This document shows, one piece after another, positions 33,607-57,128 of a stretch of DNA of 64,000 nucleotides (its first letter is position 1; each line of letters opens with the position of its first letter). Below the pieces are notes generated by a model that did not search any database, had not been told where the DNA came from, and was given only the letters and a program-made list of their open reading frames with translations. The DNA comes from a virus. The translations under genes and the position numbers were made by a program. The stretch spans positions 1 through 64,000 of IMG/VR virus record IMGVR_UViG_3300029505_000004; one strand, written 5' to 3'.

Positions 33607-35585
33607 GCTGCTTGTTGTATTATTCCGTCTTGTGGAGAAGCATTTGCATCGTTCATCATCTTCTCCATAAGTGCCGGATTTTGACTTGCTATCTGTTGCA
33701 TCAGTGCCGGATCCATCTGTGTCATGTTCTGGTTTTCTGCCATTTCCTGCTCTGCACGTTTGATACTTTCCAATATCTTTGATGCAAAAGGCAGACTGGA
33801 GTTTTCCAGCAAGGTCTTTACGTTGATAGCCTGCATTTCAAACAGCTTCATCAGGAATTCGTTTTCAAGCATTTGGAATGTAGGTGTATTTGTTCCTTCT
33901 GTAAGTTCAAGATCAAGCTGCGCACCCTGAACCTTCTCCGGATCGTAATATTTAGATTCTTCAGAATAATCTTTTCCTCCCAATTCTATATATCTGGGCG
34001 AATCATAATATTGCTGAATGGTCTGCATCAGCTTGAGATCTCTCCTTTTCCGGAAGGCTTTAAACGAATCGAACAAACCTTTCAGGTTCATAGATGCGTT
34101 TTCTGTCTGTTGTGCATAAAGAGAAGCGGCAGTTCCGGATGAAGGATCCTTTCCCTGCATAGCTGAGTTTACACCGGCAATATCATTGATCAGTTTTAAC
34201 TGAAGGCTTAACAGTTCATAGTCCCCCTGAATGGCTCCGGATCCGTTAAGCTGTGTAATGACTGAACGAATGTCTTTACCCGGTTTCAGTCGGCAGAAAA
34301 GAACTCCGTTATATCTTACGTATTCATCAATGATTTCTTCCCGGCTCATGCTGTCGAATGCATCTTCATCCACAACTACCAGACCTTTTGCTGAAGAAGA
34401 ACGTATAAAGTCTATCAGCGTCATGGTACGGTTGATACTTCTCTGCTGGTCGATAAAGTCCTCTATGAAATTGAATATCTTTCCGTGTATGATAGGATAA
34501 GCATGAAATACATAGTTGTGCTGGCCGTGCCAGTATGGGCTTCTTCCTTCCTGCAAAACATCACCCCACGGGGAAAGATATCTGTAATACCAGTATCTTT
34601 CTACTTTGAATTCGTATTCTATCAAAAGAATATCTTCCTCTTCTACTCCAGCTTCAAGTGCTTCGGATATTCTTTTCTGGTTTATGTATTCCAGCTTATT
34701 TACTTCGTTCAATCCGACAAAGCCCCAGCTTCCATCAAGCGTGTCGTGGTAGAAATATGCGTCCCTGCTCTCCAGCTTCCAGCCTAGGATAACCCGGCAA
34801 AGATCTACTTCTGCAGGTGTGTAAAAATCGGCATTTTTCTGGTTGTAACCCTGTACACCGTCAACGAATGATCTTCTTGGGTGATCATTGGTTCCATATA
34901 TGCTTTCCAGCCATTCACGATCCTTTTTACTCTTTGCAAAGGCCGCGACTACCTGTTCAAAGTCCATATCAAAGATTTCACCGATGCAGGTTATATCCCA
35001 TCCTCGCTGATCTTCTATGTTTGTATTGAAAAATAGCCGTGAGGGATCAACATTGTAAACCCATGCATCATTCATGTGCTTGTACTCGTTGTACCCGAAC
35101 TCTATTCTTTGTGCAATGTAGCCGCCACATTCCAGAACCATAAGGCTGGCTGCGTCCAGTTCTGTGATCTCGTTAAGTGACTGAGCATATTCCATTGCAA
35201 TACTCATCATTTCACCGATCTTTGCTTCATCCCGATCTCTTACCGAGCATATAGGTTTTGTTACGTTTCTTCTGAACTGGCCTTCTATGTTCTTAACAAT
35301 CGGTGCTATCATGTTGTTTTTCAAAGGAACCTTACCATTTTTCTTGATAAGTTCTCCTTCAGTCATCATCTTGCCGGTGTCCGGATCCTTTATATAGTCT
35401 CCCCATTGATCTTCTTTCGCATACATCAGGGATCTTTCCATTTTCTTACGGGCAGTGTAAAGGCTGCTCCAGTATGAAGCAAACTCTTCAAGTTCCTCAT
35501 ACGCCGTTCCTCTTGTGCGGTAAACGGTTTCTTTTGTCCTGTCGTCCCGCTTCGGCTTTACAGATCTGTTTAAGAATTTATTCAT
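33603..35585 (-). CDS. portal protein candidate (660 aa)
   Basis: Size, adjacency to terL and to the ejection-protein genes, Q/M/A-rich C-terminal tail; no motif verified. Confidence 0.5.
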   Translation of the reverse strand: MNKFLNRSVKPKRDDRTKETVYRTRGTAYEELEEFASYWSSLYTARKKMERSLMYAKEDQWGDYIKDPDTGKMMTEGELIKKNGKVPLKNNMIAPIVKNIEGQFRRNVTKPICSVRDRDEAKIGEMMSIAMEYAQSLNEITELDAASLMVLECGGYIAQRIEFGYNEYKHMNDAWVYNVDPSRLFFNTNIEDQRGWDITCIGEIFDMDFEQVVAAFAKSKKDREWLESIYGTNDHPRRSFVDGVQGYNQKNADFYTPAEVDLCRVILGWKLESRDAYFYHDTLDGSWGFVGLNEVNKLEYINQKRISEALEAGVEEEDILLIEYEFKVERYWYYRYLSPWGDVLQEGRSPYWHGQHNYVFHAYPIIHGKIFNFIEDFIDQQRSINRTMTLIDFIRSSSAKGLVVVDEDAFDSMSREEIIDEYVRYNGVLFCRLKPGKDIRSVITQLNGSGAIQGDYELLSLQLKLINDIAGVNSAMQGKDPSSGTAASLYAQQTENASMNLKGLFDSFKAFRKRRDLKLMQTIQQYYDSPRYIELGGKDYSEESKYYDPEKVQGAQLDLELTEGTNTPTFQMLENEFLMKLFEMQAINVKTLLENSSLPFASKILESIKRAEQEMAENQNMTQMDPALMQQIASQNPALMEKMMNDANASPQDGIIQQAA

Positions 35586-35680: not shown

Positions 35681-37933
35681 TTATTTCACTTCTTCAAGAA
35701 GTTCTCGTCTGGTTTCTATAATCATATCCTCTATTTCTTTTCGATCTTCTCCTTGAGATTCTTTTGCCATATCGTTTAGTTTTTTCAACTTCTTCTGATA
35801 TGGTTTGTATTTCTGGTATTTATCATACAGATCAGAATTCAGCATTTCTTTATACTCATCTTTGTTTCCGCTTTTCTTTACACCATTAAGTTCATACTTA
35901 AACTGGTCCATTTCATCACGGAGATTAAAGTATTCTGTATTGATTCCAGAAAAAGCATTTCTTTCATCAACAGTATTAAGGAACCTGTTTACAATAGGAA
36001 CATTTCTCATCACCAGATCTTCATCTTTCTGCTGTTCGATTAATGACTTTCCACCATAATATATCGTTTTCCCAGCCTGATTGAATGTTTTGGCCATACC
36101 GCCAAAATAAGATTCAAGAAGGTGTTCTACTTTGGCAGGATTGAAATCTATAAATCCTTTTCGGAATTCAGATCCCGGACCACTACCGTTGCTGATATCA
36201 TTCAGGAATTTGGAAGTATCAACAAGCCATCCTGACGTACCTTTATAAACTCTCTTCCACTCCGGATCACGTTCGTTAAATGGAGATATCTTTGCTACCG
36301 GTTTCCCGGTGAAGTCCTGATTCCAGACATAAGCCTCAAATATTGGAGACATAATATCAGGCATAAACGTCTTTAAGCCTTCATTCCCTGTTGGATTTAA
36401 AGGCAAAAGATCTGCAAGCTGTCCTACTGTTCCTTTTGCGATATTGGTCGCGGAAGGCTTTTCTTTGCCGGTTGTAATCTGATAAGCATAATCACCCAGC
36501 CCGTAGAAAGCCCTTAATTCAATGGGAAGAGGAATAGTCAAAAACGTATCATTACCTGTATATATACAGAGATTGTTTCTTCTTACCCATTCCGGCAGAT
36601 CATTGTACGGATCATCGTCTCCACCGCCAAAGATACTGTACAATACATTGTTTATCATTGGCATTAAAAATCCTGCTGACATAAATCCGCCTAAAGCTGA
36701 ATAGAACTTAACCGGTTGTTTGTCATACAGTCTTTTAAAATTGGTTAGAGACTGAACAGAAGCATTAAAGAAAAGATACAGGTTTCTGAATATACCCGAA
36801 GTCATTCCAAAAAATCCGCCGGTTTTATATCCGGCCCCTTTCTTGTTAAAGTTTACAGTTACTTCTTTCGCATCATTCACAGATTCCGTAATACTTCTAC
36901 CCATTTGTCTGGAAGTCATGTACGTGGTAAATCGTGAAATATCTTCTGCCCATCTGTTGAAATCCTCAAGTCTGTCTATTGCAAAATCCATAGCCATCTT
37001 TGCGGATCCCATCTCACCGTTTATTTTTGGAAGTTCCTTCCTTACTTTTTTCTTGTACTTTTCAACATCATTCAGGTGCATGTATCCGGTTTCACCGCCA
37101 TTCTCGATAAACTCCTGAAAATATCTGTCAGCTTCGGTGTTATTTGGCTTGCCATTCAGGTTTCTCAATACAACAGGCATGGCTTTCAGTATGTTCTTTC
37201 TGAACCTACTTGAATACTTCCCATCTTCTTTTATGCTTACAGCAACATTGGAAAATATCAGGTCTCTTACAAGGTTGCTTAACACAAAAGCCGGGTTTCT
37301 GGTAGTGAAGTTAGCCGCCAACCATCTGTTTGCAGTTGCAATGGATCTGAATATCGGGTTCTGTTCTACATTCGGGTTAGTCAATCCATTGATTGCCTGC
37401 GCTGCTCTTGGATTTCCATTAATGTATATAATATAATCTTTCCCGCCATTCTTTACCTGAACAACATGCTGGGAGATGTTGTTTTTATTGATCCTATAAT
37501 TTATATTAAGACCATTTGACTTTTGTGTTGCACGCCCCTCATTTTTTAATTGCTTCATCTGCTCTTCGTGATTTTTGATCTTTTCAGCAATAGTTTCAGC
37601 GTTGTCGCTTTCTTGAATGTATGGCATAGATATATTCCATTCATCTTTTACCGGATCATATACATACCAAGCCTTTTTCAATGTAGCTATATCAGTAGGA
37701 TGATTTATAACCATACTCATAAAACTTTGCTTCATCATGTTTCTGTTGCCTTGCATGATAGCACTTTCGGCCATATTTCCAATTGTGGCAAATATTTCAT
37801 CAGGAATACTCTTTCTTCCCTTTGCGGATTTCAGTACAGAACTTACAGGATTTCTTTCTGAATCAATATATTCATAAACATCTTCTGCTGTCTGTTCATC
37901 CCATCCGCGCAAGGGTACATAATACATGTACAT
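35681..37933 (-). CDS. 750-aa ORF: C-terminal portion of the IS-split polyvalent virion protein gene (may still be translated from its own ATG)
   Basis: The four codons between the IS end (37946) and ATG 37933 (GINN) are open and in frame; after in-silico IS removal they join the giant ORF in frame. Confidence 0.6.
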   Translation of the reverse strand: MYMYYVPLRGWDEQTAEDVYEYIDSERNPVSSVLKSAKGRKSIPDEIFATIGNMAESAIMQGNRNMMKQSFMSMVINHPTDIATLKKAWYVYDPVKDEWNISMPYIQESDNAETIAEKIKNHEEQMKQLKNEGRATQKSNGLNINYRINKNNISQHVVQVKNGGKDYIIYINGNPRAAQAINGLTNPNVEQNPIFRSIATANRWLAANFTTRNPAFVLSNLVRDLIFSNVAVSIKEDGKYSSRFRKNILKAMPVVLRNLNGKPNNTEADRYFQEFIENGGETGYMHLNDVEKYKKKVRKELPKINGEMGSAKMAMDFAIDRLEDFNRWAEDISRFTTYMTSRQMGRSITESVNDAKEVTVNFNKKGAGYKTGGFFGMTSGIFRNLYLFFNASVQSLTNFKRLYDKQPVKFYSALGGFMSAGFLMPMINNVLYSIFGGGDDDPYNDLPEWVRRNNLCIYTGNDTFLTIPLPIELRAFYGLGDYAYQITTGKEKPSATNIAKGTVGQLADLLPLNPTGNEGLKTFMPDIMSPIFEAYVWNQDFTGKPVAKISPFNERDPEWKRVYKGTSGWLVDTSKFLNDISNGSGPGSEFRKGFIDFNPAKVEHLLESYFGGMAKTFNQAGKTIYYGGKSLIEQQKDEDLVMRNVPIVNRFLNTVDERNAFSGINTEYFNLRDEMDQFKYELNGVKKSGNKDEYKEMLNSDLYDKYQKYKPYQKKLKKLNDMAKESQGEDRKEIEDMIIETRRELLEEVK

Positions 37934-37945
37934 GTTATTTATTCC

Positions 37946-39019
37946 AATCAGCAGTTGAACTGCTGTATTTTTATAAGTTTAACCGAGGTCATTTAGACCT
38001 CAAAAAAGTTGTAAATAGTTGAAAATTAAGGGATAAAATACTTGCAAAAGTCCTTGAAAATCAGTAACTTAAAGTAAAAAACACCCCTATTTTTTGCTTG
38101 TTATGATTCCCAAGGACAAAGCTCTAAGACTTATAAGAACCTATATGTATATCTGCAATATGTACGAACAAAGTCTCAAATACCATTGCCAAAGATACAG
38201 CAATAATTCGAAACCGTTGTTCTCCGACGAGGAAATTCTCACGATTTATTTCTTTGTCGGTCATGAGCAGAAGTACACCCTCATCAAGGATATTCACAAC
38301 TTCGCTAAAGAGTACCTACGCGACTGGTTCCCGAACCTGGTGTCCTATCAGACATTCAATTACCGTCTAAATAGGATGGCCGGTGCTGTTACGGAACTGT
38401 CCTCACAGTTGTTAAGCATGTTCAAGCCTTCTGACTGTCAGGAAGATACCGTCATTGTTGACTCGATGCCGATAATCACATGCTGCGGAAGGAACCGTAC
38501 AGGTAAGGTCGCCAGGGATATTGCCGACAAGGGATACTGTTCCACCAAGAACCTGTACTATCATGGAATAAAGCTTCACATGGTAGGCTATCGAAGGAAA
38601 GGACATCTCCCGCATCCATGCCAGATCGCACTGTCGCCAGCATCCGAGAATGACCTGAAGGTCTTCCAGAGCGAATGCATGCCGAATCTTTTTAACAAGA
38701 AGATCTTCGCTGACAAGATATACCGAAGCTGTGACTACTGGGAGCTGGAGAGACGCGATAAGGACAATGAGTTCTACGCTCCCGTCAAGTCCATCAAAGG
38801 GGCTTCCGAGGAAGAAAAGCAGAGAAGCAAGGCTGCAAATGACCTTTATTCTCAAGCCGTTTCTGCTGTTAGGGAACCCATTGAGGCACTCTTCAGTTGG
38901 CTGAACGAAAAAACAAATATTCAAAGAGCTTCAAAGTGCCGCTCTACTTGCGGACTGCTAATTCATACGATGGGAAAGGTTGCCATCGCATTTTTATACC
39001 TTATTTTCAACTACTGATT
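37946..39019 (+). mobile_element. IS982-family insertion sequence (~1074 bp) with an interrupted left inverted repeat
   Basis: Terminal IRs AATCAGCAGTTGAA (37946-37959) and the reverse complement of 39006-39019 AATCAGTAGTTGAA. An inner IR continuation at 38016-38038 matches 38991-39013 in about 21 of 23 positions. The transposase stop at 39015-39017 lies inside these ends. No target-site duplication seen. Confidence 0.75.
38103..39017 (+). CDS. IS982-family DDE transposase
   Basis: VIVDSMPIITC, KGYCSTKNLYYHGIKLH, ASENDL, ADKIY and REPIEALFSWLNE blocks match the IS982 transposase pattern; ATG at 38103. Confidence 0.75.
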   Translation: MIPKDKALRLIRTYMYICNMYEQSLKYHCQRYSNNSKPLFSDEEILTIYFFVGHEQKYTLIKDIHNFAKEYLRDWFPNLVSYQTFNYRLNRMAGAVTELSSQLLSMFKPSDCQEDTVIVDSMPIITCCGRNRTGKVARDIADKGYCSTKNLYYHGIKLHMVGYRRKGHLPHPCQIALSPASENDLKVFQSECMPNLFNKKIFADKIYRSCDYWELERRDKDNEFYAPVKSIKGASEEEKQRSKAANDLYSQAVSAVREPIEALFSWLNEKTNIQRASKCRSTCGLLIHTMGKVAIAFLYLIFNY

Positions 39020-42000
39020 CAAATTATTTACATTAGAGTATTGTTCCTTTCCCATCATTCCGCTATCATAAGCCTTACGCAATGTGGTTTTGGTTGCATC
39101 GTTGATCTTATTCCACAACTCTTTTACATCATATGTCTGTTCAAAGTCCTTGACGTAATTAAGCGCATCTTCTTGGAAGTTATCATGTTCTTCTCCGTCC
39201 ATACTGTTAAGAATGGCCTGTGTAGCTGAATAGTCATTTACACCTCCAATATAATCACTCAGTTCTTTCAGGTATTCATATCCTGAATATAACTTCCTCA
39301 GTCTTTCCTTTTCATCTTTAAAATCCTGAATTAATTGATCCGCATTGCCCTTTTTGTTTTTGATAACTTCATCAAGCCGTTCCCGGAATGTAAGTTCTAC
39401 GTTTCTTTCAATTCCGTGGGCCAACATCATATACCGTTCAATACCCTTTTGAGTAAGGCCGTACTTCTTCATCATCTTACCGGCTTCCTGAAGCATTGGC
39501 TGATAATGTTTCTTATAATACACTTCTGCTTCGGAAGTGTTTTTTGAACTTAACTGGTTTTCTGCCATGTATGCGTTCTCAAATGACTTTATAGGTTTAC
39601 CGGAAACTTTAGCAATTACTTCCTGAAGGTTTTTCAAAGCAAGCATACTGTCTTGATATGCTTCCTGTGCCTTATATTTCCATCCTTTCAAAGATTGCTC
39701 ATACATACCTATACTTCCGTCTGTATCTTCCCTAAAGTAGTTACCTACTCCCATCTGGTACTGCATGGCAACATCTTTGGCCAGATCAAGCGGTTTGTTT
39801 TTGTCTAGGTTCTGGCGGCTTCTCCAAAGGATATATTGAAGTTCATTATCACTTATTTTTATGTTAATGCCCATACGTCTCATAAGTGAATTGAATGCCT
39901 GTTTTATCCTTTGCCATACAGAAACGTCTACTCCGTTTTCAGCCATTCTTGCCATGTATTCCTCTGTGGCTATACGTGAATTATATCCATATCTGGGAAG
40001 AGTATCAATAATTTTCTTCCTTACTTCATCGGTAACATTGGCAAAAACATCATCAAGAAAATCATCCATACGATCTTCTCCTACAAGCTGTCTCAATCCG
40101 TAATGTGCAACACCTTCGTGAAGGATAGTCTGGTTCACATCTTCCATGCTGGTAGCGTTAGGAAGATATACATACACTTTGTTGTCTGACAAAGAATACC
40201 ATCCCTTTACTTTCCTTCCTTTTTCAATGGCAGATCTTACTGAGTTATCCTTTATCTGGTCAACAGAAGTTATAACCTCTACCGGAACATTCAACTTTTT
40301 AGATGTTTCTTCTACATCTTCCGATTTTATGTTGTTTAAGTCCTGATTTTCTTCCGAAACCCTAAAACGCACATCTTCGCTATTCTCCAGTTTTGCCTTC
40401 TTTGATACGGTTACTCCCATCTTACTTAACCGGTCAAGAACTTTAGACAGGTTATCGGAAGAAATATCCGCAACCATGTAATTACCCCTAGTTGTAAACT
40501 CTTTGTTGTCAGCAAGTGAACGTAACTTGTTGTCCTCAAAGAATTCTCCACCTTGTTTTTTGGATTTAGGAACCTTTAAAGCATATCCGGATCTCCAGCC
40601 GGTGTTTTTCTCCACAATGACACGTTTATCTTCACTGATAACAGTTTCACCCTGCTGTATCTGGATAAGTCTGCTGCTGATAGGAGCACTTGTTGTAAGA
40701 TTTTCCGGCTTGAAGCTATCAGACATCAGAATACCCTGTTTCGTATCACCTTCAATAGTAGAATATGAAACCAGATATCCTTTTACGTTTTCTGATTTTT
40801 TTGTATCAACTAGGGCCTGCAGAAGGTTACCTGTAACAATATAGGCCTTCTTTCTTGTCTGGGTAGGCACATAAGAATCCCAGGTATCAACATTAAGATC
40901 CTTCAGGTAAGTCGGCTGCATCATTGTGTTCATACGGATCGAATTGAAAGCTTTTTCCTGATTTAACGGTATTTCTACTTTCCTTCTTCCGTCAAGAGTG
41001 GCAAAAATGGCAGTAGAAGAACTCGGTGAATAGTCCTTACTGAACTTGTACCCCAAAAACATACCACGACTTGGCATAATTGTTACCAGTGTTTCGTCAA
41101 GATTGAATGGTATTACAAGAGGTTTCATAGGAGTAAACGAATTGATCTGCTTGCGAATGTTTTCCCTTCGGGCTTCAATTACGTTCTTCTGTTTTATGAA
41201 GCTTTCTTTCGATTTCTTCATAATATCCTCTACAACTACCTCGGACATTTTTTCAATTTCTTCGTCCGTAAACTCATTCTTTCCGTTTTTGCGGGCTTCT
41301 TTAGACTTTTCGATGTAGTTCTTCTTGGCTTTTTCAGAACGCTCTAACGCGCTTTGATCAAGCCTTTCTTTCAGAGTGGCAATTTTACCATCATACAATG
41401 AATTTATTTCCTTAACTCTATTGTCCAGCCATTCATTGAAAGGTTCTCCAGAAGTCATACGACTAACTGTTGACTTGATTTCTTCCGCTTTCATGGGCTT
41501 TTTAAGGACATCTACTTCTACTTCTTCCAGATAAGTGTTATCCGCAAAGGCATTACCGCTATTGGGATCCGTTCCCGGCTTCCATATCTTTTTGCTGATA
41601 GTTTTGGCCTTCAACGGCATAGTGGTAATTTCAAGATCGTTTTCTCCGGCGTCATTAAGAAGCTGGATCTTTACATTGTATGCGTCTGTGATATCCTTGA
41701 AAACTTCTTCCTGTTCTTTTACAGGCAGGAATGGAAGATATCTGGCTATTTTGGCCGCACACCCTTCTTTACCTGCGGTGTTGGTATCTCCTGACTGGGA
41801 TTCTTCTCCTTCGCTTGTGAGGATTTTAAGAGGATCACCCAGTTTTTCGGACAACTCCGGATGCTCAAGCATATACTGCCATGTCACATCGTCACCGTAC
41901 TTGTTGAGGTAATCAACAACTTCCATTTCGTTGAACTTGGATTTCTGAGAAGATGTAGTATTTGCATCAAGAGACTTAAGTTTTGCCTTGAACATCATCT

Positions 42001-45000
42001 GTAATCTTTGTTCTGCCGGGATAGACGACATGATATACTCATATTTTCCTCTGAACTTCTGGCCGGTTCTGTCTATACGTCCTCGCATCTGCACTTCATC
42101 ATTGATATCACTCTGGAACTGGGCAAACACCATGACGCGCTGACGCTGATCCTCAAACTTGGGTGAAGCATGAAGGGATATACCTGTACTACCAGACTTG
42201 TTTACCATAAGCACGTCAAGTTGTCCGTTGTTGAAATCACGTGCGGCAGACTTCTTATCACGGTCCTTACGGTTCTGTATGACATACTTTCCGTTTTCGT
42301 CCTGAACCATCTCAAGTGTTCTACCTGTGATTTCTCCAACCTTATATCCTGCCTTCTGGATCTTCATCTTAATTGCGTCCATAGGGCTTATAGGAAGGTC
42401 CGCGGAAAGGTTTTCAATCTTTTCCCTGATCTCGTAATACTTGTTTTGTCCGGCTTCCGGAAGGTCGTTCACAGTGAAGAACTTGTTTTCCTTTTCTCCC
42501 TTCAGGTTGGTTTCCGTATATCTCATAACTCCGTCAAGCGCACGCATAAGAGTTGCTGAGAAGTTTGGCACCTTATCCATAGGAGTGTCTTTAGGTGCTT
42601 CATCCAGAAATCCTTCCATCGTATTGGTGAAGGATATTACAGGCTTAAAACCATTCTTAAGGTTTTCAATAACCCTGTTGGCGACTGCATCTGCCTTAAG
42701 AGAGAAAAGCAACTGATTTACCAGATTATACATTTTGCTGGCAAATGGTGTATTGGTTACTCCCAGTTCTGCGGTACCCTGCTGGAGATCGGAATAACCG
42801 CCTTGTTCGGACAATTCTTCGGAAATGCCTTCGACAATAGGTGTAATGTAGTCTTTCTGGAACGCCCTGATATCACTGAATATTGAAGATACTTCATCGA
42901 ATTGTTTTCTCTGAACCGCATCTTCTTCTTCACTTACCGGCATCCAGTCAATAGTTACACCTTGAAAACTTCTTTCTCTTCGGATCATCTGTCCGGATTG
43001 AACAAGCTGTTTGGACATGATCTCCTGCAATGTAACACCACCTTGAGATATTGCTTCGATCATATCCTGTGGTGATATGCCAGACTTGGAAAGGTCGGTT
43101 TTCATTGCATATATAGGCATGTTATCCGCACGTTTGGCGAATGTGGCAGACAGGAATGTTACTCCTTTTACCTTTGGCATGATATACTGCATGTACATGG
43201 ATCCACCGCCACTTCCACCGGCTGTATGACTTTCATCTAGGATCATAATGTTATCCTTTGACAAGGCTTGAATAACATCACGTCTTTCCTGACCGCTCTT
43301 GTCTGCTGCCGAAGGAGATTTCTTCTTATAACTCTTGTCTTTTTCAGCTATTCCATCTTCTTTTGGCTCATATTCTTTCGTTCCATTATTGATCTGGGAA
43401 TATGTAGTTATGACGTAATCATACTCTTCTGGAAGCTTTCCGTTCTTCATAATGTAGTCAAACACTCTTTTCTTCTCCTTGTCGGTAGGAAGTTTGTGTA
43501 CTACATTCCCGGACGCATCAGTAATAGCTGCGTTTTTTGGATCTGACGCGATGATAAACGGCCTTAAATCTCCGCTGCCTATATCTGCAAGGTCTCTGTA
43601 ATTATCAGAGAAAAGCGCGGGCTTCTGAGTGAAGTATATAGGGTTATAACCCTTCCTTACCGCATATCTGATTAAGGCTGCACCCTGACGGCCCTTTCCG
43701 ACACCGGTCATATCTCCGATAATGAATCCGTTTCCTTTATTCATCTGGTTTATAGCCAAAGAAACAGAATCAATCTGTTCAGCGGCCAGATAACTGAACA
43801 GTTCGTCTTTGCTTGAATATCCAAGCTGGTCAACCAAGAACTGGTCTACATCACCAATGTTAGCCAGAGAATCGGCAAGAACTTGTGCTTGATTTGCCGG
43901 AACAACTGACATAAGTGTACCGGACTGGCTTCTGTTGGGATATGGGACTTTTTCATCACTGAGGTTTACTGATAATCTGCTTCTGCCGGTGTTATCTCCT
44001 GAATCAGATCTGACAGATCCACCATTCCGGCTTCCTCCGGTACTTCCTCCGTTATCAGATCCTCGCTGCTCTTGAACAGGTTCAACGCTTCCTGCATTTG
44101 ATCTGTCCGCATTATCCAATTTGCCAGCATTTTCTTCTGCTGTGGATCGTTCAGCCTGCTCTGGTCCGGATGCGGTAGTATTACCGGTGCTTCCCATGTC
44201 ATTGTCAGATCCGACTTTTTTGTCTGGTCGTACGGATTTTCCCCGTTCTCCAGACTTTGGTCTATTGCTGACATTATTGTTTGCTCCACTTCCTTCTGTG
44301 TCAGTGGTCCGGGTTTCTCCTTCTGTACCGTTAAAGAGATCCCCCATTTGCTGTAATGAACGTATATCATCTTGAACTCGGTTATATAATTCTTCAAAGC
44401 TGTTTATCTGTTCCGCTCTTGCTTTGCTCTTAACCGGTGGAGCAATAAGTTTAAACGGACCAGTTTTTCTTCCGTTGATAAGGATAATACGAACGTCATA
44501 TTTAGTTCCGTTCCTCTTGTACATATCCCCGTTAAGGTTGATAACATCAACCACATTATAGTGTGAGTAAAGATACGCAAAAAGTTTCATATCTTTGCTC
44601 TGCATCGCACCATTATCTCGATAAGAAGTATTTCCACCGATAACAATAGCCGCCCTTCCGTTATCCTTCATGGATTCAAGCGCATTAATAGCCATCAAAC
44701 CTTCCAGAGAACTGATCTTGATCTGTCCGTCGTCGAATTCTTTTGCGGTTGTCGATCCAAATGGGGGATTTGTCAGAACTGCGTCAACAGATCCTTCAAA
44801 TGGTATCAGTGCATCCTGATTGGTTACCTGGGCATATCCCAGCGTACGAAGGTTTTCCAGTCTCCTTTCATCAATATCATTAACATGTACAGTATTGGCC
44901 GGGAAAGCTATTGTTAGTGCGCCATTCCCTGCTGAAGGTTCCAGAACGCTTTCAACCGTTTTGCCATCCTTGACAAACTTCCCCATTACATATCCGAAGG

Positions 45001-48000
45001 GAGTAGGCGTACTGTATTGCTGGCGTTCAAACCTTGTGCTGTCTCTTGCATTAAGAAGAGGTTGCATATTGTACATATCGACAATAGTGTCATATCCCTG
45101 CTTTTGTTTTGTTGCGTCTCCGTTAATGTAGGATTCAGCTATTAATCTTGTCTCGTTGGTCATTGCCAGTTCAACAAGTTCCTGCATATCTGTTGCTGAC
45201 ATGTCAGAAAGCATGTCATAACCCTTAAGGATATCTTTAACTTCCTTCATGGTTAGGGGATCTACCTGTTCATCATTTCTCTTAGCTATTGCCTTCTCTG
45301 CAATTTTAACGCCAATTATAGAAACGGCTTCTTTCTCCTGCTCGGCTTTTTTCTGGTATTCCTCAGAGTTGCCAAAGAGATCAGAAGGTGATTTTTTTAC
45401 ATCATTACTGGAAGTTGCCTTTTCTATTTCCTTCTCTTTAGCAACATTTTCTATCTGCTGCATTACATCAGGAACAGACTTATCGAAGTTGGTTACATCA
45501 AACTGACTGACTTCGCTGTCCGGGCTCATTCTTTCCGACAAGCCGTTTTCTATTGATTGCGGCATATATCTTGCGGAGCTATAAAATGACTTCAAGTAAG
45601 GCCTGATAACGTCTCCAAGATCATCTACCATTGCTTTGCAATAGTCTGCAAACTTGACTGCACCGCGTTCTATGTGGTACACAGCCATTTCTGCGCCAAT
45701 AGCAATAATTTCAGGATCAATACCGGCATTTAGCTGGCCCAACTTCTGTTTAAGTCTATTTTTAAGTTCCTGGTAACGTTCATCGGAAACAATGTTGTTA
45801 CTTTTTGCAGGTGTATCTTCTGCGTTAGTGGTTGTTTCCTTTTCGGAAACAGGCACTACACTCTTATACTCAGCAAAAGGTTTGGTTTTTCTGTGGGATG
45901 AATTAACCCACTTCTTAAACTCTTCTTTGGAAACACGTGTTATGTTTCCTAGTCCGGTCCAGTCTTTTGAGTAATTAGCCATGTATGCGCGTTTGGCCGC
46001 AAGGGCTGATTTAAACCCATACATAACCTTGTGTTCGTCAAATGTTCCATCAGGGTTTACCTGATCAATAACAAACACATCACCAGTTTCCGGGTTATCA
46101 GAAAGGAATACATCAATGTGATCACCATCTACGCCCTCGGTACCGTGGATATATCCATAGTCGTTGTTCATGGTAACAGACCATTCATTACCATCTGCGT
46201 CTTTTCCAGAACGTACAGATCCCTTCGGGTTTTCAATAGTTACATCGTACCCGTCAATCTTAACATGGCCTTTCTTGTAGTTACCGGCTTCCTTCTGTGC
46301 TTCAGTTGGATTTTGATCTACTTCCGCACGTGCAGCTTCGATATCGGTTTTTACTGTTCCTTCTGGTTCAGGTACCACGCTACCGCTTTTGCCATCAGTT
46401 TTAATTGCTGGCTCCGGTTGTTCTTCGACTTCTCCAGTTCTTCCTTCGTTATCACTTTCGCGTTCAGGCTGAACTGTATTGCCTTGTTCACTGTCTGTTT
46501 GTCCTTCAGTGCTTCCTGCACTTTCTGTTTCTGCTCTTCGTTCATAGTCGTTAATGATTTGCTCAAAGATAGTATTTAATTCTTCATCTGTTACGGATGA
46601 ATACAAGTTATTAAGTTCTTCTTCGATATAGTCTGAATATGCAATCCATTCAGGTACCGACATTCTGTTTTCAGAAGCTTCCCATTCAATAAGCTGGCGT
46701 TCCTGATCTTCTTCATATCCCGGAATGTTTTCTTCGATATCGGTTCCATGCATGTTTTTTGCGGCGTCCCACATCTTAGAAGGACTTCCATATTCTTGGA
46801 AAGCATTAATGATCATGTTGAACACGTCCTGATCAGTAACCATTCCCTGCAAGTTCTCCGGCATATCAGCATGGATCTGTTCTGCTGCGGCTTCTGGCGT
46901 TAAACCATCGGAAGATAATGCCCATACAAGCTTTTTCCTTTCTTCCGGTGAGTTGGAATAGCCCAGATGTGAAGAAAGGCCCTGTGCTCCTTCTGTGTCA
47001 GACAGAGAGAACGAAACGCGGCCTGTTGCTATTTCTCGCAAAACATGTTCCTGTGGAGTTATGGAAGGGCCTAGATCTGCATCTTCTTTGACATAACGAA
47101 CCTTTTTCCGCGGTTCCTTGCGTTCAAAGGCTCCTGCATCAATCTTCTTCTGAACTTCCTGCTGTGCAGCTTGCTGTTCTTCGGCTGTCATGGATGCAAG
47201 ACGTTGCTGGTTTTCTTTAGCCTTTTCTTCTGCCTGAGCAATAAGTCCGGTAGGCCTTTTTGCTTCAAGATCCGCTGCAACCTGATTCCAATAGGATATC
47301 TTGTCATTGATAGCTTTTTTTGCCTTCTTTGTCTCAATAATTCCCTGAATAGTGTTTCCGGAAGATTTTTTCTTTTCAACTTTTTTTAGTTCGTTATTAT
47401 AATACTCAATCATCTGCGTTACGGTGTCCTTCGCATCATCAACATTATCACTGATTTCCAGCAATGCGGCAGAAGTATCTGCAATCGGTGCGGCTTCAAA
47501 GTCTTGTTCACCTCTTTCGTTAAGAGGAATGCGAGACATGGCAGTCTGATTTTCCTGAACCGGTTGTTCAGAAGTTTCTTCCTGTACAGGCTGTTCAGCT
47601 ACAGAAGGCTGTGTTTCTTCTCCATTAGCTGGCTGTTGGCCGTTGATGGCATTTCTTATTTCTTCTTCGGACATCAGCTGTGACTGGGCTGGCGTTCCAT
47701 TTTCATCAAGAAGGTACACTTCATATCCGTCTGGAGTTACCCTGTTGACTTCATAATTGTTTCCACCCATTGTAAATCTGGTTTCTGGTCCTATGGGCTG
47801 TTGTTCTTGGGCCGGAATAGAATTAATCTGTGCTTCTTCGGCTTGCAAGACTTCTTCTTGCGCATCATTACCGGCACGCTGGATCATTTCTTCTGCCGGT
47901 GTATTATCTACAAGAGAACTGAACATAGATACAGGAGCCATTTTCACACGTCCATCTTCCGACATGTAGTATATGGTCTTATCAGATTGATTTTCATCAA

Positions 48001-50392
48001 CTTTACCTTCGTTATCAAACACAAGGTTTCCGCGAAGAACATTAACAGGATTTTTGGTTAGCTTGTTATTTACCCGCATGATCGTGCCGGTGGTTGCATT
48101 GGTAAGGCTTTCGACTTGTGCTTCCGCTTGTCTCCTTGCATTATCAGCCTGATCTTGCACCCAATAATTATAATTAACAAAATCATCATAGGCTTGTTTG
48201 TATTTCATTATGTTGTTGGCCGTTTCCGGATCAAATTGAGATATGATAGCCTGATATCCTTCTTCTGAATTGATGATAGAGTTGAGTTCTTCATCGTTCA
48301 AGCTGATCTTAGAACGCGTCTCATTCAGATTGTTGATAATGTTCCTTTTTTCAACAGCAATTTCTTCCGGCATCATCTGTTTGTCTGCTTCCTGTAAGGT
48401 TTGTTCCTGAAGGACTGAAGATATATACTTGATAGCATTCTTCTTCATATCCGGAGACATAGGGCTGGACAGAACATCTTTGACCATGTTGCGGGCCGTT
48501 TCAATATCAGCGTCCTGAAGGGCTTCTCTTACACCGGACCAATCTTCGCCCATTGCATCCTGCATCTGGGTTTCAAAATTACGCATGTTGCGGTAGTTCT
48601 TGTATTTATCACGAAGATATCCACCTGTTCCGGCTGCACCAAACAATGCAGACATGGGAGCAACACCGAGGAACGTATCAATATTCTGATCAAGATCGAC
48701 AAGCTGTTCAGGTGTCATATCTCCTATTGCGGTAGATACAAGGTTATTGGCAACTTCTTCGGCATATTCTCCCAATGGATCAGATATCTTGGCACGTCTG
48801 GCAATCTCCTGCATTTCCCGGAAGCCTTGACTATTGACAACGTCCTTGAACGCCTTACCTACTGATGCAGGTATGATCTTTCCAACTTTGTTCGCACCAG
48901 TAACACGACCGATATATCCCAACATAGGCGCAAAGTATTCGCCCAGAAGTTCGCTTCCGGTTTCTGCGGCTGTTGATATTATGGACTTACCGAGTGCTTC
49001 CGCTCCAGTCTGTACATTCTCCCGACCATCATAAGATACCGTTCCGTCTGCGTTAGGCTTAACCTGCACGTCTCCCAGACCTCTACGCTGATAATCTGCG
49101 GCCACTCTTGCACTTCCGAATGTGGCGGTGTGCGCTGCAACGTCTCCCAGACCGGCAACAGTTCTGGCGGCACCTTTAGCCAGCCCAGTTGTAGCCCGGC
49201 CAAGGCCCATTTGTGCAGCCTTATCAGCCGCATACTTAACAATGGCTTTAGACGCTGGTTTGGTCAAAGCCTGAACTGCACCCATACCGGCAATCATGTC
49301 AAGCATGAACGGAAGTGATTCTGCTGTTACACCGCCAGCCTTATAACCTCTTCCAAGATCACCGGAATAATACATCTGTGTTGCAGCATTGGTGACAAGA
49401 GCCTGCATAAGTGCATCTTCCGAAGGAGTAAGTTCTTCCCCCTTGTCTACTTTGTCCATGACTTTCTTTGCGGCAGAATAATTCTTGAGATCCTGCAATC
49501 CCATTGCCCATCCGTCCAGTGGTGCGTCCTTGAAACCACGCGCAAACCCGGCAAAGAAGTTGGTGTTTCCTTTCTTCTTCGCTTCATTGGTAATATTCTG
49601 AGCCTGTTCTATTAGGGTAGACGCATATTCCAACTGTTTGTCGGTATCATTCTGCTCCCCGGCAAGATACGCCTGTGACATGGTTGAGAATATACCGCCA
49701 TCACCAACAGATCTCACGCGCTGTTGTCTTTCCTTAGCACGTTCCTGCCTTGCCGCATTGATCAGTTCATTAACGCTGTTGATCTGCTCCTGATTCTGCC
49801 TTTTGAACAGTTCAAGATTCTGTTCCTTCATATAGGGATCATTGGCAGACTTCTGTGCCTGTTCAACTCTCTGCTGTTGGTCAATACCGATTTTACGGAC
49901 TAGATCCGAAGGATTGTTTTCAAACAGATCTTGCTGGGGCAAAGGCCTTGTGGCAAGATTATTCCCCTTGCTCCTGAACATATCAGGAACATTGTCAAGA
50001 ATGTACCCTTGTGTCTTGGGATCATAAGAAGGCATATCTTGAACTGGCTGTACTTGCGGCTGTTCCGGCTGAACATTCTGGGTTCTCACATTGGTTGCCG
50101 GTTCTTCCTGTGATCTGGCTACCAGTTTGCTCGAAAACGAATCGAAGTCGCCAACATCATATCCATCATTTGTAATTGTCTCATACAACGATTTCCGTTT
50201 AGTTTCGTCCTGTACATTCTTGCTGAACGAATCGAAGTCGCCAACATCATATCCATCATTTGTAATTGTCTCATACAACGATTTCCGTTTAGTTTCGTCC
50301 TGTACATTCTTGCTGAACGAATCGAAGTCGCCAATATCATAACCATCTTGGGTTAGTCTATCATACAATACTCTTGTCTTATTATCTTCCAT
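39011..50392 (-). CDS. giant DarB-like polyvalent virion protein, N-terminal 3791 native residues (truncated by the IS, which supplies NQ plus TAG)
   Basis: ENPKGS (46217-46246) and DGDHIDV (46106-46130) are pyrophosphatase-like. EPSAGNGAL (44916-44947) and TNPPFG (~44757-44775) fit an N6-adenine MTase. GDMTGVGKGRQ (43685-43717), ILDESH (~43225-43245) and RGRIDRTGQ (~42065-42095) fit a strawberry-notch/DExH helicase. Confidence 0.8.
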   Translation of the reverse strand: MEDNKTRVLYDRLTQDGYDIGDFDSFSKNVQDETKRKSLYETITNDGYDVGDFDSFSKNVQDETKRKSLYETITNDGYDVGDFDSFSSKLVARSQEEPATNVRTQNVQPEQPQVQPVQDMPSYDPKTQGYILDNVPDMFRSKGNNLATRPLPQQDLFENNPSDLVRKIGIDQQQRVEQAQKSANDPYMKEQNLELFKRQNQEQINSVNELINAARQERAKERQQRVRSVGDGGIFSTMSQAYLAGEQNDTDKQLEYASTLIEQAQNITNEAKKKGNTNFFAGFARGFKDAPLDGWAMGLQDLKNYSAAKKVMDKVDKGEELTPSEDALMQALVTNAATQMYYSGDLGRGYKAGGVTAESLPFMLDMIAGMGAVQALTKPASKAIVKYAADKAAQMGLGRATTGLAKGAARTVAGLGDVAAHTATFGSARVAADYQRRGLGDVQVKPNADGTVSYDGRENVQTGAEALGKSIISTAAETGSELLGEYFAPMLGYIGRVTGANKVGKIIPASVGKAFKDVVNSQGFREMQEIARRAKISDPLGEYAEEVANNLVSTAIGDMTPEQLVDLDQNIDTFLGVAPMSALFGAAGTGGYLRDKYKNYRNMRNFETQMQDAMGEDWSGVREALQDADIETARNMVKDVLSSPMSPDMKKNAIKYISSVLQEQTLQEADKQMMPEEIAVEKRNIINNLNETRSKISLNDEELNSIINSEEGYQAIISQFDPETANNIMKYKQAYDDFVNYNYWVQDQADNARRQAEAQVESLTNATTGTIMRVNNKLTKNPVNVLRGNLVFDNEGKVDENQSDKTIYYMSEDGRVKMAPVSMFSSLVDNTPAEEMIQRAGNDAQEEVLQAEEAQINSIPAQEQQPIGPETRFTMGGNNYEVNRVTPDGYEVYLLDENGTPAQSQLMSEEEIRNAINGQQPANGEETQPSVAEQPVQEETSEQPVQENQTAMSRIPLNERGEQDFEAAPIADTSAALLEISDNVDDAKDTVTQMIEYYNNELKKVEKKKSSGNTIQGIIETKKAKKAINDKISYWNQVAADLEAKRPTGLIAQAEEKAKENQQRLASMTAEEQQAAQQEVQKKIDAGAFERKEPRKKVRYVKEDADLGPSITPQEHVLREIATGRVSFSLSDTEGAQGLSSHLGYSNSPEERKKLVWALSSDGLTPEAAAEQIHADMPENLQGMVTDQDVFNMIINAFQEYGSPSKMWDAAKNMHGTDIEENIPGYEEDQERQLIEWEASENRMSVPEWIAYSDYIEEELNNLYSSVTDEELNTIFEQIINDYERRAETESAGSTEGQTDSEQGNTVQPERESDNEGRTGEVEEQPEPAIKTDGKSGSVVPEPEGTVKTDIEAARAEVDQNPTEAQKEAGNYKKGHVKIDGYDVTIENPKGSVRSGKDADGNEWSVTMNNDYGYIHGTEGVDGDHIDVFLSDNPETGDVFVIDQVNPDGTFDEHKVMYGFKSALAAKRAYMANYSKDWTGLGNITRVSKEEFKKWVNSSHRKTKPFAEYKSVVPVSEKETTTNAEDTPAKSNNIVSDERYQELKNRLKQKLGQLNAGIDPEIIAIGAEMAVYHIERGAVKFADYCKAMVDDLGDVIRPYLKSFYSSARYMPQSIENGLSERMSPDSEVSQFDVTNFDKSVPDVMQQIENVAKEKEIEKATSSNDVKKSPSDLFGNSEEYQKKAEQEKEAVSIIGVKIAEKAIAKRNDEQVDPLTMKEVKDILKGYDMLSDMSATDMQELVELAMTNETRLIAESYINGDATKQKQGYDTIVDMYNMQPLLNARDSTRFERQQYSTPTPFGYVMGKFVKDGKTVESVLEPSAGNGALTIAFPANTVHVNDIDERRLENLRTLGYAQVTNQDALIPFEGSVDAVLTNPPFGSTTAKEFDDGQIKISSLEGLMAINALESMKDNGRAAIVIGGNTSYRDNGAMQSKDMKLFAYLYSHYNVVDVINLNGDMYKRNGTKYDVRIILINGRKTGPFKLIAPPVKSKARAEQINSFEELYNRVQDDIRSLQQMGDLFNGTEGETRTTDTEGSGANNNVSNRPKSGERGKSVRPDKKVGSDNDMGSTGNTTASGPEQAERSTAEENAGKLDNADRSNAGSVEPVQEQRGSDNGGSTGGSRNGGSVRSDSGDNTGRSRLSVNLSDEKVPYPNRSQSGTLMSVVPANQAQVLADSLANIGDVDQFLVDQLGYSSKDELFSYLAAEQIDSVSLAINQMNKGNGFIIGDMTGVGKGRQGAALIRYAVRKGYNPIYFTQKPALFSDNYRDLADIGSGDLRPFIIASDPKNAAITDASGNVVHKLPTDKEKKRVFDYIMKNGKLPEEYDYVITTYSQINNGTKEYEPKEDGIAEKDKSYKKKSPSAADKSGQERRDVIQALSKDNIMILDESHTAGGSGGGSMYMQYIMPKVKGVTFLSATFAKRADNMPIYAMKTDLSKSGISPQDMIEAISQGGVTLQEIMSKQLVQSGQMIRRERSFQGVTIDWMPVSEEEDAVQRKQFDEVSSIFSDIRAFQKDYITPIVEGISEELSEQGGYSDLQQGTAELGVTNTPFASKMYNLVNQLLFSLKADAVANRVIENLKNGFKPVISFTNTMEGFLDEAPKDTPMDKVPNFSATLMRALDGVMRYTETNLKGEKENKFFTVNDLPEAGQNKYYEIREKIENLSADLPISPMDAIKMKIQKAGYKVGEITGRTLEMVQDENGKYVIQNRKDRDKKSAARDFNNGQLDVLMVNKSGSTGISLHASPKFEDQRQRVMVFAQFQSDINDEVQMRGRIDRTGQKFRGKYEYIMSSIPAEQRLQMMFKAKLKSLDANTTSSQKSKFNEMEVVDYLNKYGDDVTWQYMLEHPELSEKLGDPLKILTSEGEESQSGDTNTAGKEGCAAKIARYLPFLPVKEQEEVFKDITDAYNVKIQLLNDAGENDLEITTMPLKAKTISKKIWKPGTDPNSGNAFADNTYLEEVEVDVLKKPMKAEEIKSTVSRMTSGEPFNEWLDNRVKEINSLYDGKIATLKERLDQSALERSEKAKKNYIEKSKEARKNGKNEFTDEEIEKMSEVVVEDIMKKSKESFIKQKNVIEARRENIRKQINSFTPMKPLVIPFNLDETLVTIMPSRGMFLGYKFSKDYSPSSSTAIFATLDGRRKVEIPLNQEKAFNSIRMNTMMQPTYLKDLNVDTWDSYVPTQTRKKAYIVTGNLLQALVDTKKSENVKGYLVSYSTIEGDTKQGILMSDSFKPENLTTSAPISSRLIQIQQGETVISEDKRVIVEKNTGWRSGYALKVPKSKKQGGEFFEDNKLRSLADNKEFTTRGNYMVADISSDNLSKVLDRLSKMGVTVSKKAKLENSEDVRFRVSEENQDLNNIKSEDVEETSKKLNVPVEVITSVDQIKDNSVRSAIEKGRKVKGWYSLSDNKVYVYLPNATSMEDVNQTILHEGVAHYGLRQLVGEDRMDDFLDDVFANVTDEVRKKIIDTLPRYGYNSRIATEEYMARMAENGVDVSVWQRIKQAFNSLMRRMGINIKISDNELQYILWRSRQNLDKNKPLDLAKDVAMQYQMGVGNYFREDTDGSIGMYEQSLKGWKYKAQEAYQDSMLALKNLQEVIAKVSGKPIKSFENAYMAENQLSSKNTSEAEVYYKKHYQPMLQEAGKMMKKYGLTQKGIERYMMLAHGIERNVELTFRERLDEVIKNKKGNADQLIQDFKDEKERLRKLYSGYEYLKELSDYIGGVNDYSATQAILNSMDGEEHDNFQEDALNYVKDFEQTYDVKELWNKINDATKTTLRKAYDSGMMGKEQYSNVNNLNQ
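50131..50345 (-). repeat. 90-bp (30-aa) tandem repeat, 2 identical copies plus 1 diverged, at the 5' end of the giant gene
   Basis: 50141-50220 is identical to 50231-50310; encodes DGYD(I/V)GDFDSFSKNVQDETKRKSLYETITN. Confidence 0.9.
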
Positions 50393-51488: not shown

Positions 51489-52000
51489 TATCTACCCCCT
51501 TTCTTCTTGTCATACATCGAGAAGGCACTACCGATAAGGCCAAGTCCATTCGACATAAGTTGCGCACCTCCCTGCTCATTCATCTGGCTCTGTCCAAGTC
51601 TTGCATTGAGAATTGCATTTTGGTTCTGCTGATTTGCTGCATCAACTTGCATTTTACGCTGTGTAGCCTGTGCAGCCAGACCGGTTGCAGTGTTATCCAG
51701 TATCTCATTGTTCGCCTGTTGTTGTGCTACGGCGGCTTCTGGAGTTGATCCCATAACAGCGGCAGTTGCACGTGCTTCCTGATTCTGCTTTTTCAGAGTG
51801 TTTTCCACTCTCTTCATTGCGGCCTGTGCTTCGGCTGATTCCATGTAGTTCTGGTAATAGTTACGATTATACCAGGCATTGTTCTTAGATTCCTGTTCAT
51901 TGATAAGCCGCTGCTGCTCGCGTGCAGCTTTGGCCGACTTAATTCCCCCGAATATTCCGGAAGCTAAACCGCCCACGGCTCCTAATATTGCTCCTATCAT
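51488..52000 (-). CDS. Gly-zipper membrane-active small protein (170 aa), first gene of the ejection module
   Basis: MIGAILGAVGGLASGIFGGIKSAK N-terminus, Q/A/N-rich helix, glycine-rich C-terminus. Confidence 0.6.
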   Translation of the reverse strand: MIGAILGAVGGLASGIFGGIKSAKAAREQQRLINEQESKNNAWYNRNYYQNYMESAEAQAAMKRVENTLKKQNQEARATAAVMGSTPEAAVAQQQANNEILDNTATGLAAQATQRKMQVDAANQQNQNAILNARLGQSQMNEQGGAQLMSNGLGLIGSAFSMYDKKKGGR

Positions 52001-56574: not shown

Positions 56575-56646
56575 CGCTTTGTAGTTCAACGGATAGAACG
56601 GAAGTTTCCTAAACTTCAAATCCGGGTTCGATCCCCGGCAAAGTGA
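56575..56646 (+). tRNA. tRNA-Arg (anticodon CCU)
   Basis: Hand-folded cloverleaf. Acceptor CGCTTTG/CAAAGTG (one G-U); D arm GTTC-AACGGATA-GAAC; anticodon arm GAAGT-TTCCTAA-ACTTC; T arm CCGGG-TTCGATC-CCCGG. Confidence 0.85.
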
Positions 56647-57007: not shown

Positions 57008-57081
57008 GGATCAGTAGCTTAGTTGGTGAAAGCGGCGGCCTCATAAGCCGAAGATCCACGGTTCAAGCCCGTGCTGATCCA
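57008..57081 (+). tRNA. tRNA with CAU anticodon (Met, or Ile2 if lysidine-modified)
   Basis: Acceptor GGATCAG/CTGATCC; D arm GCTT-AGTTGGTGA-AAGC; anticodon loop CTCATAA; T arm CACGG-TTCAAGC-CCGTG. Confidence 0.85.
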
Positions 57082-57128
57082 CGCTTGTAGAAAAGCAATT
57101 CTATTTTCTTAATCTTAACCACTGGACA

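Follow-up and report, generated by a model that had tools for sequence, protein, structure and literature searches.

The DNA analysed here (the window) comprises 64,000 nucleotides (nt), positions 1 to 64,000 of the IMG/VR virus record IMGVR_UViG_3300029505_000004, and is phage-derived in appearance throughout, with genes for an integrase, an S24 repressor, RecT, an SNF2 helicase, a P22-like portal protein, a terminase and an SU10-like capsid protein. Its minus strand carries an uninterrupted open reading frame (ORF) of 3,793 amino acids (aa) at 39011..50392, as read from the ORF list and its translation, which a preliminary description had presented as a gene for a DarB-like giant polyvalent protein ending at 39011. 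All of the strings quoted there (IENPKGS, DYGYIHGTEGVDGDHIDVF, EPSAGNGAL, TNPPFG, GDMTGVGKGRQ, ILDESH and RGRIDRTGQ) occur in the translation. The proposed end of the gene is incorrect: the stop codon TAG (39013-39011) and the last three codons, encoding LNQ, are located inside the right end of an IS982-like insertion sequence (IS), so that the listed ORF consists of a native part followed by the IS-derived codons LNQ and a stop. The giant ORF represents the first five-sixths, counted from the 5' end, of a phage-type polyvalent-protein gene of 4,540 codons, and its 3' end is artificial (Table 1).

The terminal inverted repeats of the IS match at 15 of 18 positions, and the ends of the element, (A)TTCCAATCAG...CTGATTCAAA(T), were set by comparing six copies. 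The encoded transposase matched the NCBIfam IS982 model NF033520 (E 3.3e-32; 112 bits, under the curated cut-off of 130) as well as the Pfam models DDE_Tnp_1 (24.2 bits vs 23) and DDE_Tnp_1_3, and belongs to a cluster with 2,025 member proteins. According to the six-copy comparison, the duplicated target is more probably 5 bp long (TATTT in the window and at L006, TATTA at L009, GAATA at L010), and the 7-nt repeat TTATTTA bordering the element consists of these 5 bp plus end bases that coincide. A total of 73 related IS loci, mostly of Bacteroidales, were found in genome collections, and their similarity to the window stops at the IS borders; copies in Phocaeicola, Alistipes, Dysgonomonas and other Bacteroidales share about 90-99% nucleotide identity with it, only over about 37932-39034. 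These data show that an IS982-like element, whose source was a Bacteroidales host, recently cut the gene. A group I intron or homing endonuclease, considered as another identity for the 1.1-kb gap, was ruled out by the DDE transposase, the inverted repeats, the target duplication and the many genomic copies. The left IS end also contains a perfect hairpin, CAGCAGTTGAACTGCTG, followed by a T-run (37949-37975, plus strand), an arrangement resembling a terminator for transcripts entering towards the transposase gene.

In-silico removal of 1,089 nt (363 codons' worth) fused the two ORFs flanking the element in frame, yielding a single ORF of 4,540 aa. The restored junction, SNVNN/MYMYY, is identical in intact relatives at 96-98% identity. 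A junction-spanning construct, used as a query, retrieved the uninterrupted and 98% identical P0001 (...KEQYSNVNNMYMYYVPLRGW...), and SNVNNMYMYY is read across the site in P0001, P0116, P0128 and P0131. P0116 (4,543 aa) is collinear over its whole length at 96% and has the same domain architecture. At the nucleotide level, window segments 40354-39024 and 37941-33000 aligned with contig L001 at 98.4% identity and overlap there by 7 nt; the flanks align in the same way, again with a 7-nt overlap, in L079, the contig encoding P0116. Both contigs represent empty sites, each with TTATTTA present once, and blastn alignment to the window stops at 39024. In gp3 (5,391 aa) of Bacteroides phage BS-TP4 one high-scoring segment pair spans the IS point. 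The empty sites came from protein-guided look-ups, while an exact-pattern search for the empty site in genome contigs found none.

Taken at face value, the unbroken ORF with its terminal stop codon, together with public gene calls that list a 3,793-aa product, would suggest a complete stand-alone DarB-like gene ending at 39011 and followed by unrelated genes. We regard this as scarcely tenable: the stop lies within the IS end, intact alleles of 96-98% identity run through the site, and the idea is refuted by the empty sites in L001 and L079 and by P0116. Moreover, both ORFs match the same profile, PHROG 14770 (3,427 positions), the giant ORF at positions 674-2134 and the 750-aa ORF 35681..37933 at the later positions 2712-3419. 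An annotation relying on the 3,793-aa ORF thus gives the wrong protein size and overlooks the LPD38 domain encoded beyond the IS.

A chimeric metagenomic join formed via a repeated element might, in principle, have placed the IS in the gene as an assembly artefact, and it is true that copies of the IS are abundant in gut Bacteroidales and that contig L078 breaks exactly at the IS border. Nevertheless, both flanks carry on the same gene in the same frame next to a duplicated target, which a chimera would not recreate, and the full IS with both junctions is present in the window and, identically, in the ENA scaffold L077, which makes such an artefact extremely improbable. The IS-bearing allele was also found, 99.9-100% identical, in ENA scaffolds of ERZ28598520 and ERZ27272429 and in JGI contigs. 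This degree of identity indicates one recent event that has spread or has been repeatedly sampled.

Table 1. Coordinates of the interrupted polyvalent-protein gene, its domains, the insertion sequence and the neighbouring portal gene (positions of the window; aa, residues of the giant ORF)
Feature	Coordinates	Strand	Details
IS982-like insertion sequence	37941..39024	+	1,082-1,084 bp; imperfect terminal inverted repeats (A)TTCCAATCAGCAGTTGAA / TTCAACTACTGATTCAAA(T)
Transposase gene of the IS	38094..39017	+	307 aa from TTG; 304 aa from the first ATG
Target duplication, left copy	37935..37941		TTATTTA; 5-bp core TATTT 37936-37940
Target duplication, right copy	39024..39030		TTATTTA; 5-bp core TATTT 39025-39029
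5' fragment of polyvalent-protein gene	39025..50392	-	native codons end at about 3790; junction as in intact P0001, P0116, P0128
3' fragment of polyvalent-protein gene	35681..37940	-	750 aa from an internal Met (ORF 35681..37933)
30-aa (90-nt) N-terminal tandem repeats	50136..50347	-	TRF: 2.4 copies, 98% identity
LPD14 domain (aa 474-602)	48587..48973	-	Pfam PF18827, 6.2e-43
InPase domain (aa 1364-1496)	45905..46303	-	Pfam PF18823, 5.9e-58, 195 bits vs 26.8
Predicted gamma-class N6-adenine DNA methyltransferase (aa 1734-2020)	44333..45193	-	motifs STPTP, EPSAGNG (I), TNPPFG (IV)
Strawberry-notch SF2 helicase unit (aa 2146-3340)	40373..43957	-	AAA_34 + Helicase_C_4 + about 400-aa C-terminal extension
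HExxH module (aa 3360-3552)	39737..40315	-	alignment A1; H3425, E3426, H3430, E3478, E3485 invariant
P22-like portal gene	33603..35585	-	PHROG 156, 9.9e-59; Pfam P22_portal, 6.8e-37; directly downstream of 3' fragment

Taken together, the observations make it likely, in our judgement, that the gene cut by the IS982-like element encoded a polyvalent protein which would be carried in the capsid, ejected with the DNA and act as an anti-restriction methyltransferase-helicase. The domains from which this reading is built are distributed along the whole restored polypeptide. At its N-terminus, a diverged leading part brings the tandem repeats to about three 30-aa units, the number given in the preliminary description; only two are present in P0116, P0122, P0128 and P0131. 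PHROG 24532 matches this repeat region (aa 39-93). The LPD14 domain is placed within a conserved N-terminal module (about aa 245-700), the best-kept stretch, and an exhaustive phmmer search with the N-terminal 1,200 residues returned 536 representatives, nearly all of 3,000-6,350 aa, matched near their own N-termini (residues about 100-1000).

The InPase domain carries the metal-binding motif DGDHID (a DxDxxD site) and matches residues 636-763 of the Pa193 portal protein (PDB 9b41; 1.2e-31). Since the 9B41 model covers portal residues 94-528 only (PMC11456595), the InPase domain is without a solved structure. Matches to mycobacterial family I pyrophosphatases were weak and consistent, and the alignments with 4ecp and 4z70 need a gap of about 10 residues in the query. 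This gap corresponds to the hairpin reported by Iyer et al. (2017; PMC5512222) to be missing in the polyvalent clade, of which a hairpin-less InPase is a trait. By its profile, metal site and missing hairpin the domain is a polyvalent-type family I pyrophosphatase-like domain, and it may hydrolyse pyrophosphate or nucleotides.

The N6-adenine DNA methyltransferase (MTase) was marginal in the whole-protein Pfam scan; when the tile aa 1740-2030 was scanned alone, N6_Mtase (PF02384) was matched at 2.1e-6 (27.7 bits vs a gathering threshold of 20.4). Its top five PDB matches, all of them weak, were M subunits of type I systems (HsdM/EcoKI M), with STPTP...EPSAGNG and TNPPFG as the aligned segments. 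A low-complexity linker (aa 2020-2145) separates the MTase from a superfamily 2 (SF2) helicase of the strawberry-notch (SBNO) type, in which Pfam recognised AAA_34 (aa 2202-2491; 8.8e-17, 61.4 bits vs gathering 27) and Helicase_C_4 (aa 2683-2923; 3.3e-23, 83.2 bits vs gathering 30.5), and whose motifs are complete (Walker A GVGKGRQ, DExH ILDESH, motif VI RGRIDRTGQ). The SBNO unit has 539 homologues, named 'strawberry notch' in the source databases. Thus, each of the three enzymatic domains on which the preliminary description had staked its reading (pyrophosphatase-like, MTase and helicase) returned profile matches (PF18823, PF02384 and AAA_34/Helicase_C_4). The region N-terminal to the MTase (aa 1497-1760) gave no Pfam match at E up to 10, the presence of the DarB-family LPD36 model in the library being unconfirmed, and an NCBIfam scan of the giant ORF produced nothing useful.

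Residues 1734-3340 are conserved as one block, at 34-42% identity, in stand-alone Bacteroidota proteins of 1,550-1,830 aa, and therefore the 400 residues past Helicase_C_4 can be regarded as part of the MTase-SBNO unit. These proteins ('strawberry notch C-terminal domain-containing' or 'JAB domain-containing') share the order MTase, linker, SBNO and C-terminal extension; they differ in being encoded by genes of their own, either chromosomal or in integrated elements, and in frequently having a RadC/JAB domain, whereas the present unit is one cassette in a phage virion-type protein and is missing from the 97-98% identical L001 allele.

The HExxH module is present in many polyvalent proteins, mostly after MuF_C, yet is distinct from that domain; PF18819 (MuF_C), a precomputed match in many homologues, was considered as its identity and rejected on the basis of scans of P0087 and P0090, which put MuF_C upstream of the module. 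In the AlphaFold2 (AF2) model (predicted local distance difference test, pLDDT, 80) a helix, three strands, the HExxH helix and a Glu helix follow one another in the order expected of a zincin, and the modelled fold makes the module a candidate zincin-like metallopeptidase.

Residues 3555-3790 and the 750-aa fragment form one conserved C-terminal module of about 986 aa (residues 3555-4540), which includes LPD38 (aa 440-647 of the fragment; Pfam 4.9e-42). The IS cuts 236 residues into this module, five residues before the invariant YxPLRG motif, and many further invariant residues lie on either side of the IS point. The AF2 model of the module (pLDDT 81; predicted template-modelling score 0.76) gave no significant relative in a Foldseek search against PDB; in BFVD there were 77 matches with template-modelling (TM) scores of 0.65-0.80 over about 1,000 columns (best: E 8e-60, TM 0.80, 978 columns). 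With the 750-aa fragment as a tblastn query, 359 phage records were matched (Stx-converting, Vibrio, Ralstonia and Burkholderia phages of about 60-66 kb). The regions of roughly 47000-50100 and 39011-42000, previously described as having no motif that could be named, are now assigned to the LPD14-containing N-terminal module, the extension with which the SBNO unit ends, the HExxH module and the initial quarter of the LPD38 module.

Comparison of the alleles in near-identical phages, whose backbones are 96-99% identical to the window, revealed proteins of about 3,260 aa, 4,540 aa, 5,318 aa and 5,476 aa, in addition to the IS-split form. L001 is devoid of the residues of about 1500-3340 (the MTase-SBNO unit) and contains a different cassette of 1.3-2.3 kb. 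P0128 (5,476 aa) and P0131 (5,318 aa) are enlarged by additional blocks, inserted at aa 1348, 1552, about 1650 and 3344; among them is a second HExxH domain, and the 3344 block is the counterpart of the LPD23-bearing insert in P0057. The terminal modules are constant and the enzymes exchangeable, the middle of the protein being built of swappable cassettes. Near-identical alleles differing by whole cassettes point to the terminal modules as the core of the protein and to the enzymes as swappable cargo. It is conceivable, though rather improbable, that gut Bacteroidales phages and integrated elements actively exchange cassettes, giving rise to the allelic series, and that the IS-split form stays infectious with a two-piece virion protein. 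If this is true, the alleles constitute a natural deletion and split series by which the ejection parts of giant proteins could be separated from their counter-defence parts. In L001 the polyvalent gene was called as two ORFs, 4371-9920 (1,849 aa) and 10001-14236 (1,411 aa), lying 80 nt apart; this break is unrelated to the IS site and, in a contig of about 3x coverage, represents either a true split or a sequencing error.

Proteins of this class have been described before. Iyer et al. (2017) reported the MTase-helicase dyad, its occasional strawberry-notch form and the restriction of LPD38 to phages (PMC5512222). The present protein combines several unrelated enzymatic domains with LPD14 and LPD38 and is encoded among virion/packaging genes, and its earlier designation as a polyvalent protein, after the concept of the Aravind group, fits that account. 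What is new here is another member, a corrected gene model and a natural allelic series; since the class is already known, the novelty is limited to these.

The 'DarB-like' proteins of Bcep22-like podoviruses (JC1 gp69, Bcep22 gp75) are likewise giant polypeptides of about 4.5 kaa encoded in the morphogenesis module. JC1 gp69 (4,515 aa; lytic transglycosylase, MTase, helicase and LPD38) was represented by 51 peptides in CsCl-purified virions (PMC9144972). It has an adenine MTase followed by an SF2 helicase in mid-protein and LPD38 near the C-terminus (residues 4195-4401), and Burkholderia phage records are among the 359 tblastn matches mentioned above. JC1 gp69 differs in its N-terminal lytic transglycosylase and LPD3 and in a helicase annotated as of HepA/COG4646 type, whereas InPase, the SBNO-type helicase, LPD14, a Bacteroidales host and the IS-interrupted gene are peculiar to the protein described in this study.

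The closest isolated phage is BS-TP4, a temperate phage of 64.3 kb (PMC12694917), in which two small genes, the giant gene, the portal gene and a convergent terminase gene are arranged in the same order. Its gp3 (PQ571277; annotated hypothetical) is collinear with our protein (38% identity, 3,224 aligned columns), and the alignment takes in the MTase, the SBNO unit and both the HExxH and the LPD38 modules. Unlike the present gene, that of BS-TP4 gp3 is intact; the protein is about 850 aa longer, is just 24-53% identical in the N-terminal third and has no published function. When the 14.7-kb region was compared with phage records by megablast, nothing matched.

P1 DarB (2,255 aa), a capsid-borne antirestriction protein, is the archetype of the MTase-helicase dyad (PMC5512222). 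The two proteins have in common a gamma-class N6-adenine MTase (TP and N-P/V-P-F motifs) followed by an SF2 helicase, and the P1 gene also adjoins the portal gene. Like the MTase of the DarB family, that of the giant ORF is of the EcoKI/TaqI type (STPTP ... EPSAGNG ... TNPPFG); the helicase, being of the strawberry-notch type, belongs to another family. InPase, LPD14, the HExxH module and LPD38 are all absent from DarB, and P1 is an Enterobacteria myovirus. BLASTP against P1 DarB aligned the MTase core only (24% over 135 aa, E 2e-4) plus 25 helicase residues (E 0.009), and no P1 record was matched by tblastn. The link to P1 DarB is architectural only: of the label 'DarB-like', the order of MTase and SF2 helicase holds, whereas the helicase family and similarity to P1 beyond these short segments do not.

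The LPD38-containing C-terminal module also occurs in gp47 (2,811 aa) of the Stx phage phi24B and in gp25 (2,198 aa) of PTXU04, as indicated by tblastn matches in Stx phages and a Foldseek match to PTXU04. These proteins contain other middle cassettes and no reported MTase-SBNO unit. Gp47 is abundant in the phi24B virion proteome and is a proposed ejection protein (bioRxiv 10.64898/2026.04.10.717836), while knock-down of PTXU04_00025 (gp25) abolishes plating (PMC11879866).

These homologues bear on the question of whether the protein could be a non-essential antirestriction accessory of the DarB type, dispensable on non-restricting hosts and playing no ejection or structural role. The order of MTase and SF2 helicase, the homologous MTase cores and the position next to the portal gene, all shared with P1 darB, would suit such a role, as would the natural L001 allele, from which it follows that the MTase-SBNO unit is dispensable. 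We nevertheless consider an accessory of this kind quite unlikely, because the conserved parts of the protein are the terminal modules and not the enzymes, because an LPD38-bearing homologue is needed for the plating of PTXU04 (PMC11879866), and because phi24B gp47 has LPD38 and no MTase-helicase unit and is still proposed to be an ejection protein (bioRxiv 10.64898/2026.04.10.717836).

When intact, the protein consists of the conserved N-terminal module, InPase, the MTase-SBNO unit, the HExxH module and a C-terminal module of about 986 aa that contains LPD38. By analogy with these systems, we favour the view that it would be carried inside the capsid of a temperate phage of about 63 kb which has a portal of the P22-like kind and an SU10-like capsid protein. 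It would exit via the portal together with the DNA, the terminal modules presumably serving packaging and ejection. The MTase-helicase unit could then track along the incoming DNA and methylate adenines, thereby shielding it from host restriction, InPase might clear pyrophosphate or a nucleotide signal, and the substrate of the HExxH module might be the polyprotein itself or the cell wall. For the dyad of MTase and helicase and for InPase, mechanisms were proposed previously (PMC5512222). The suggestion that the gene product is probably an injected effector gains support from the homologues of the C-terminal module that are virion-borne in podoviruses (PMC9144972; bioRxiv 10.64898/2026.04.10.717836), although the ORF to which it was applied is a truncated fragment.

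We infer that the product encoded in the window is truncated at residue 3790 (plus LNQ). Since the final 750 residues could be produced, if at all, only as a polypeptide of their own, the C-terminal module has probably suffered a loss or impairment of function, and the protein is probably defective. Several observations weigh against this view or against the wider functional reading. At least two ENA assemblies, as well as JGI contigs, contain the allele with the IS, and the remaining compared phage region looks intact, so that loss of function is unproven; the allele could persist simply as a prophage. In the model, a helical subdomain ends at the IS point and a loop of low confidence follows directly, and a two-piece protein might still assemble. 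For the HExxH module there was no Pfam match, no PDB match with the A1 profile and no Foldseek match better than E 0.5. A Kyte-Doolittle scan revealed no convincing transmembrane helix (maximum 1.43), leaving a role as a membrane conduit unsupported; most tail ORFs were without a profile match by which the morphology might be assigned. Finally, the virion proteomics and infection data cited above are those of JC1, phi24B and PTXU04.

The first two of these points, as well as the native Met right at the junction at which the 750-aa ORF begins and the calling of the L001 gene as two ORFs, would be in keeping with a split gene that still works, i.e. one whose 3,793-aa and 750-aa products are both made and associate, giving an infectious phage with a tolerated two-piece version of the protein. 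This is, in our opinion, unlikely. The IS-bearing copies of the gene, being 99.9-100% identical, indicate one recent event that may persist only as a prophage, invariant residues lie close to the cut on both sides, and the L001 split is found at a different place, in a contig of 3x coverage. No promoter or ribosome-binding evidence for the downstream piece was obtained, a sigma-70 promoter scan near the junction, unsuited to Bacteroidota, being at chance level.

In a widespread group of temperate podoviruses of roughly 60 kb, which includes Stx phages and prevalent human-gut Bacteroides phages, giant polyvalent virion proteins account for about one-fifth of the genome, and their functions have hardly been tested. 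The locus analysed here clearly exemplifies how, in a gut prophage, such a gene can be inactivated or split by an IS; it does not overturn current understanding.

The portal, terminase and SU10-like capsid genes are encoded directly downstream of the polyvalent gene, and this synteny is kept in L001, L079 and BS-TP4. The gene had been placed between small proteins and the portal; it does lie in the head/packaging module, but the IS and the severed 750-aa part separate the giant ORF from the portal gene. The earlier statement that a tape-measure gene is absent is in part borne out: the structural ORFs tested gave no tail tube, sheath or tape-measure profile match, but most of these had no match at all. 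PHROG scans of ten further ORFs of the structural region assigned no named function, and PADLOC gave no match. The terminase large subunit gene (31591-33606, plus strand) is convergent with the portal gene (33603-35585, minus strand), with a 4-nt overlap; the convergent order recurs in L079 and in BS-TP4, where the terminase is annotated as 'tail spike protein'. A 161-aa ORF (31124-31609, plus strand) adjoins the terminase gene; its equivalents in L001 and L079 show a weak Rhomboid Pfam match, and the annotation of BS-TP4 gp8 names a rhomboid domain. Upstream of the giant gene, two minus-strand genes (50394-51488 and 51488-52000; 364 and 170 aa) had no Pfam, PHROG or PADLOC match and are positionally conserved in L001, in L077-L079 and, as gp1/gp2, in BS-TP4.

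For BS-TP4, a diversity-generating retroelement has been reported whose target is a protein of about 2,000 aa (PMC12694917). In a direct-repeat scan of 13000-31000 of the window we found no template/variable repeat pair, just the repeats of a tail-fibre-like ORF, a reverse transcriptase not having been searched for. This ORF (22053-27020, minus strand; 1,655 aa) contains several diverged internal repeats of 90-165 nt. Genes for tRNA-Arg(CCT) and tRNA-Met(CAT) are located at 56575-56647 and 57008-57082 (plus strand), where they separate the repressor/integrase side from the RecT/SNF2 early region. In L001 there is an additional 1.07 kb (912-1984) with three small ORFs between its integrase and helix-turn-helix protein genes, corresponding to window position 52769/52770, which marks an indel or moron site.

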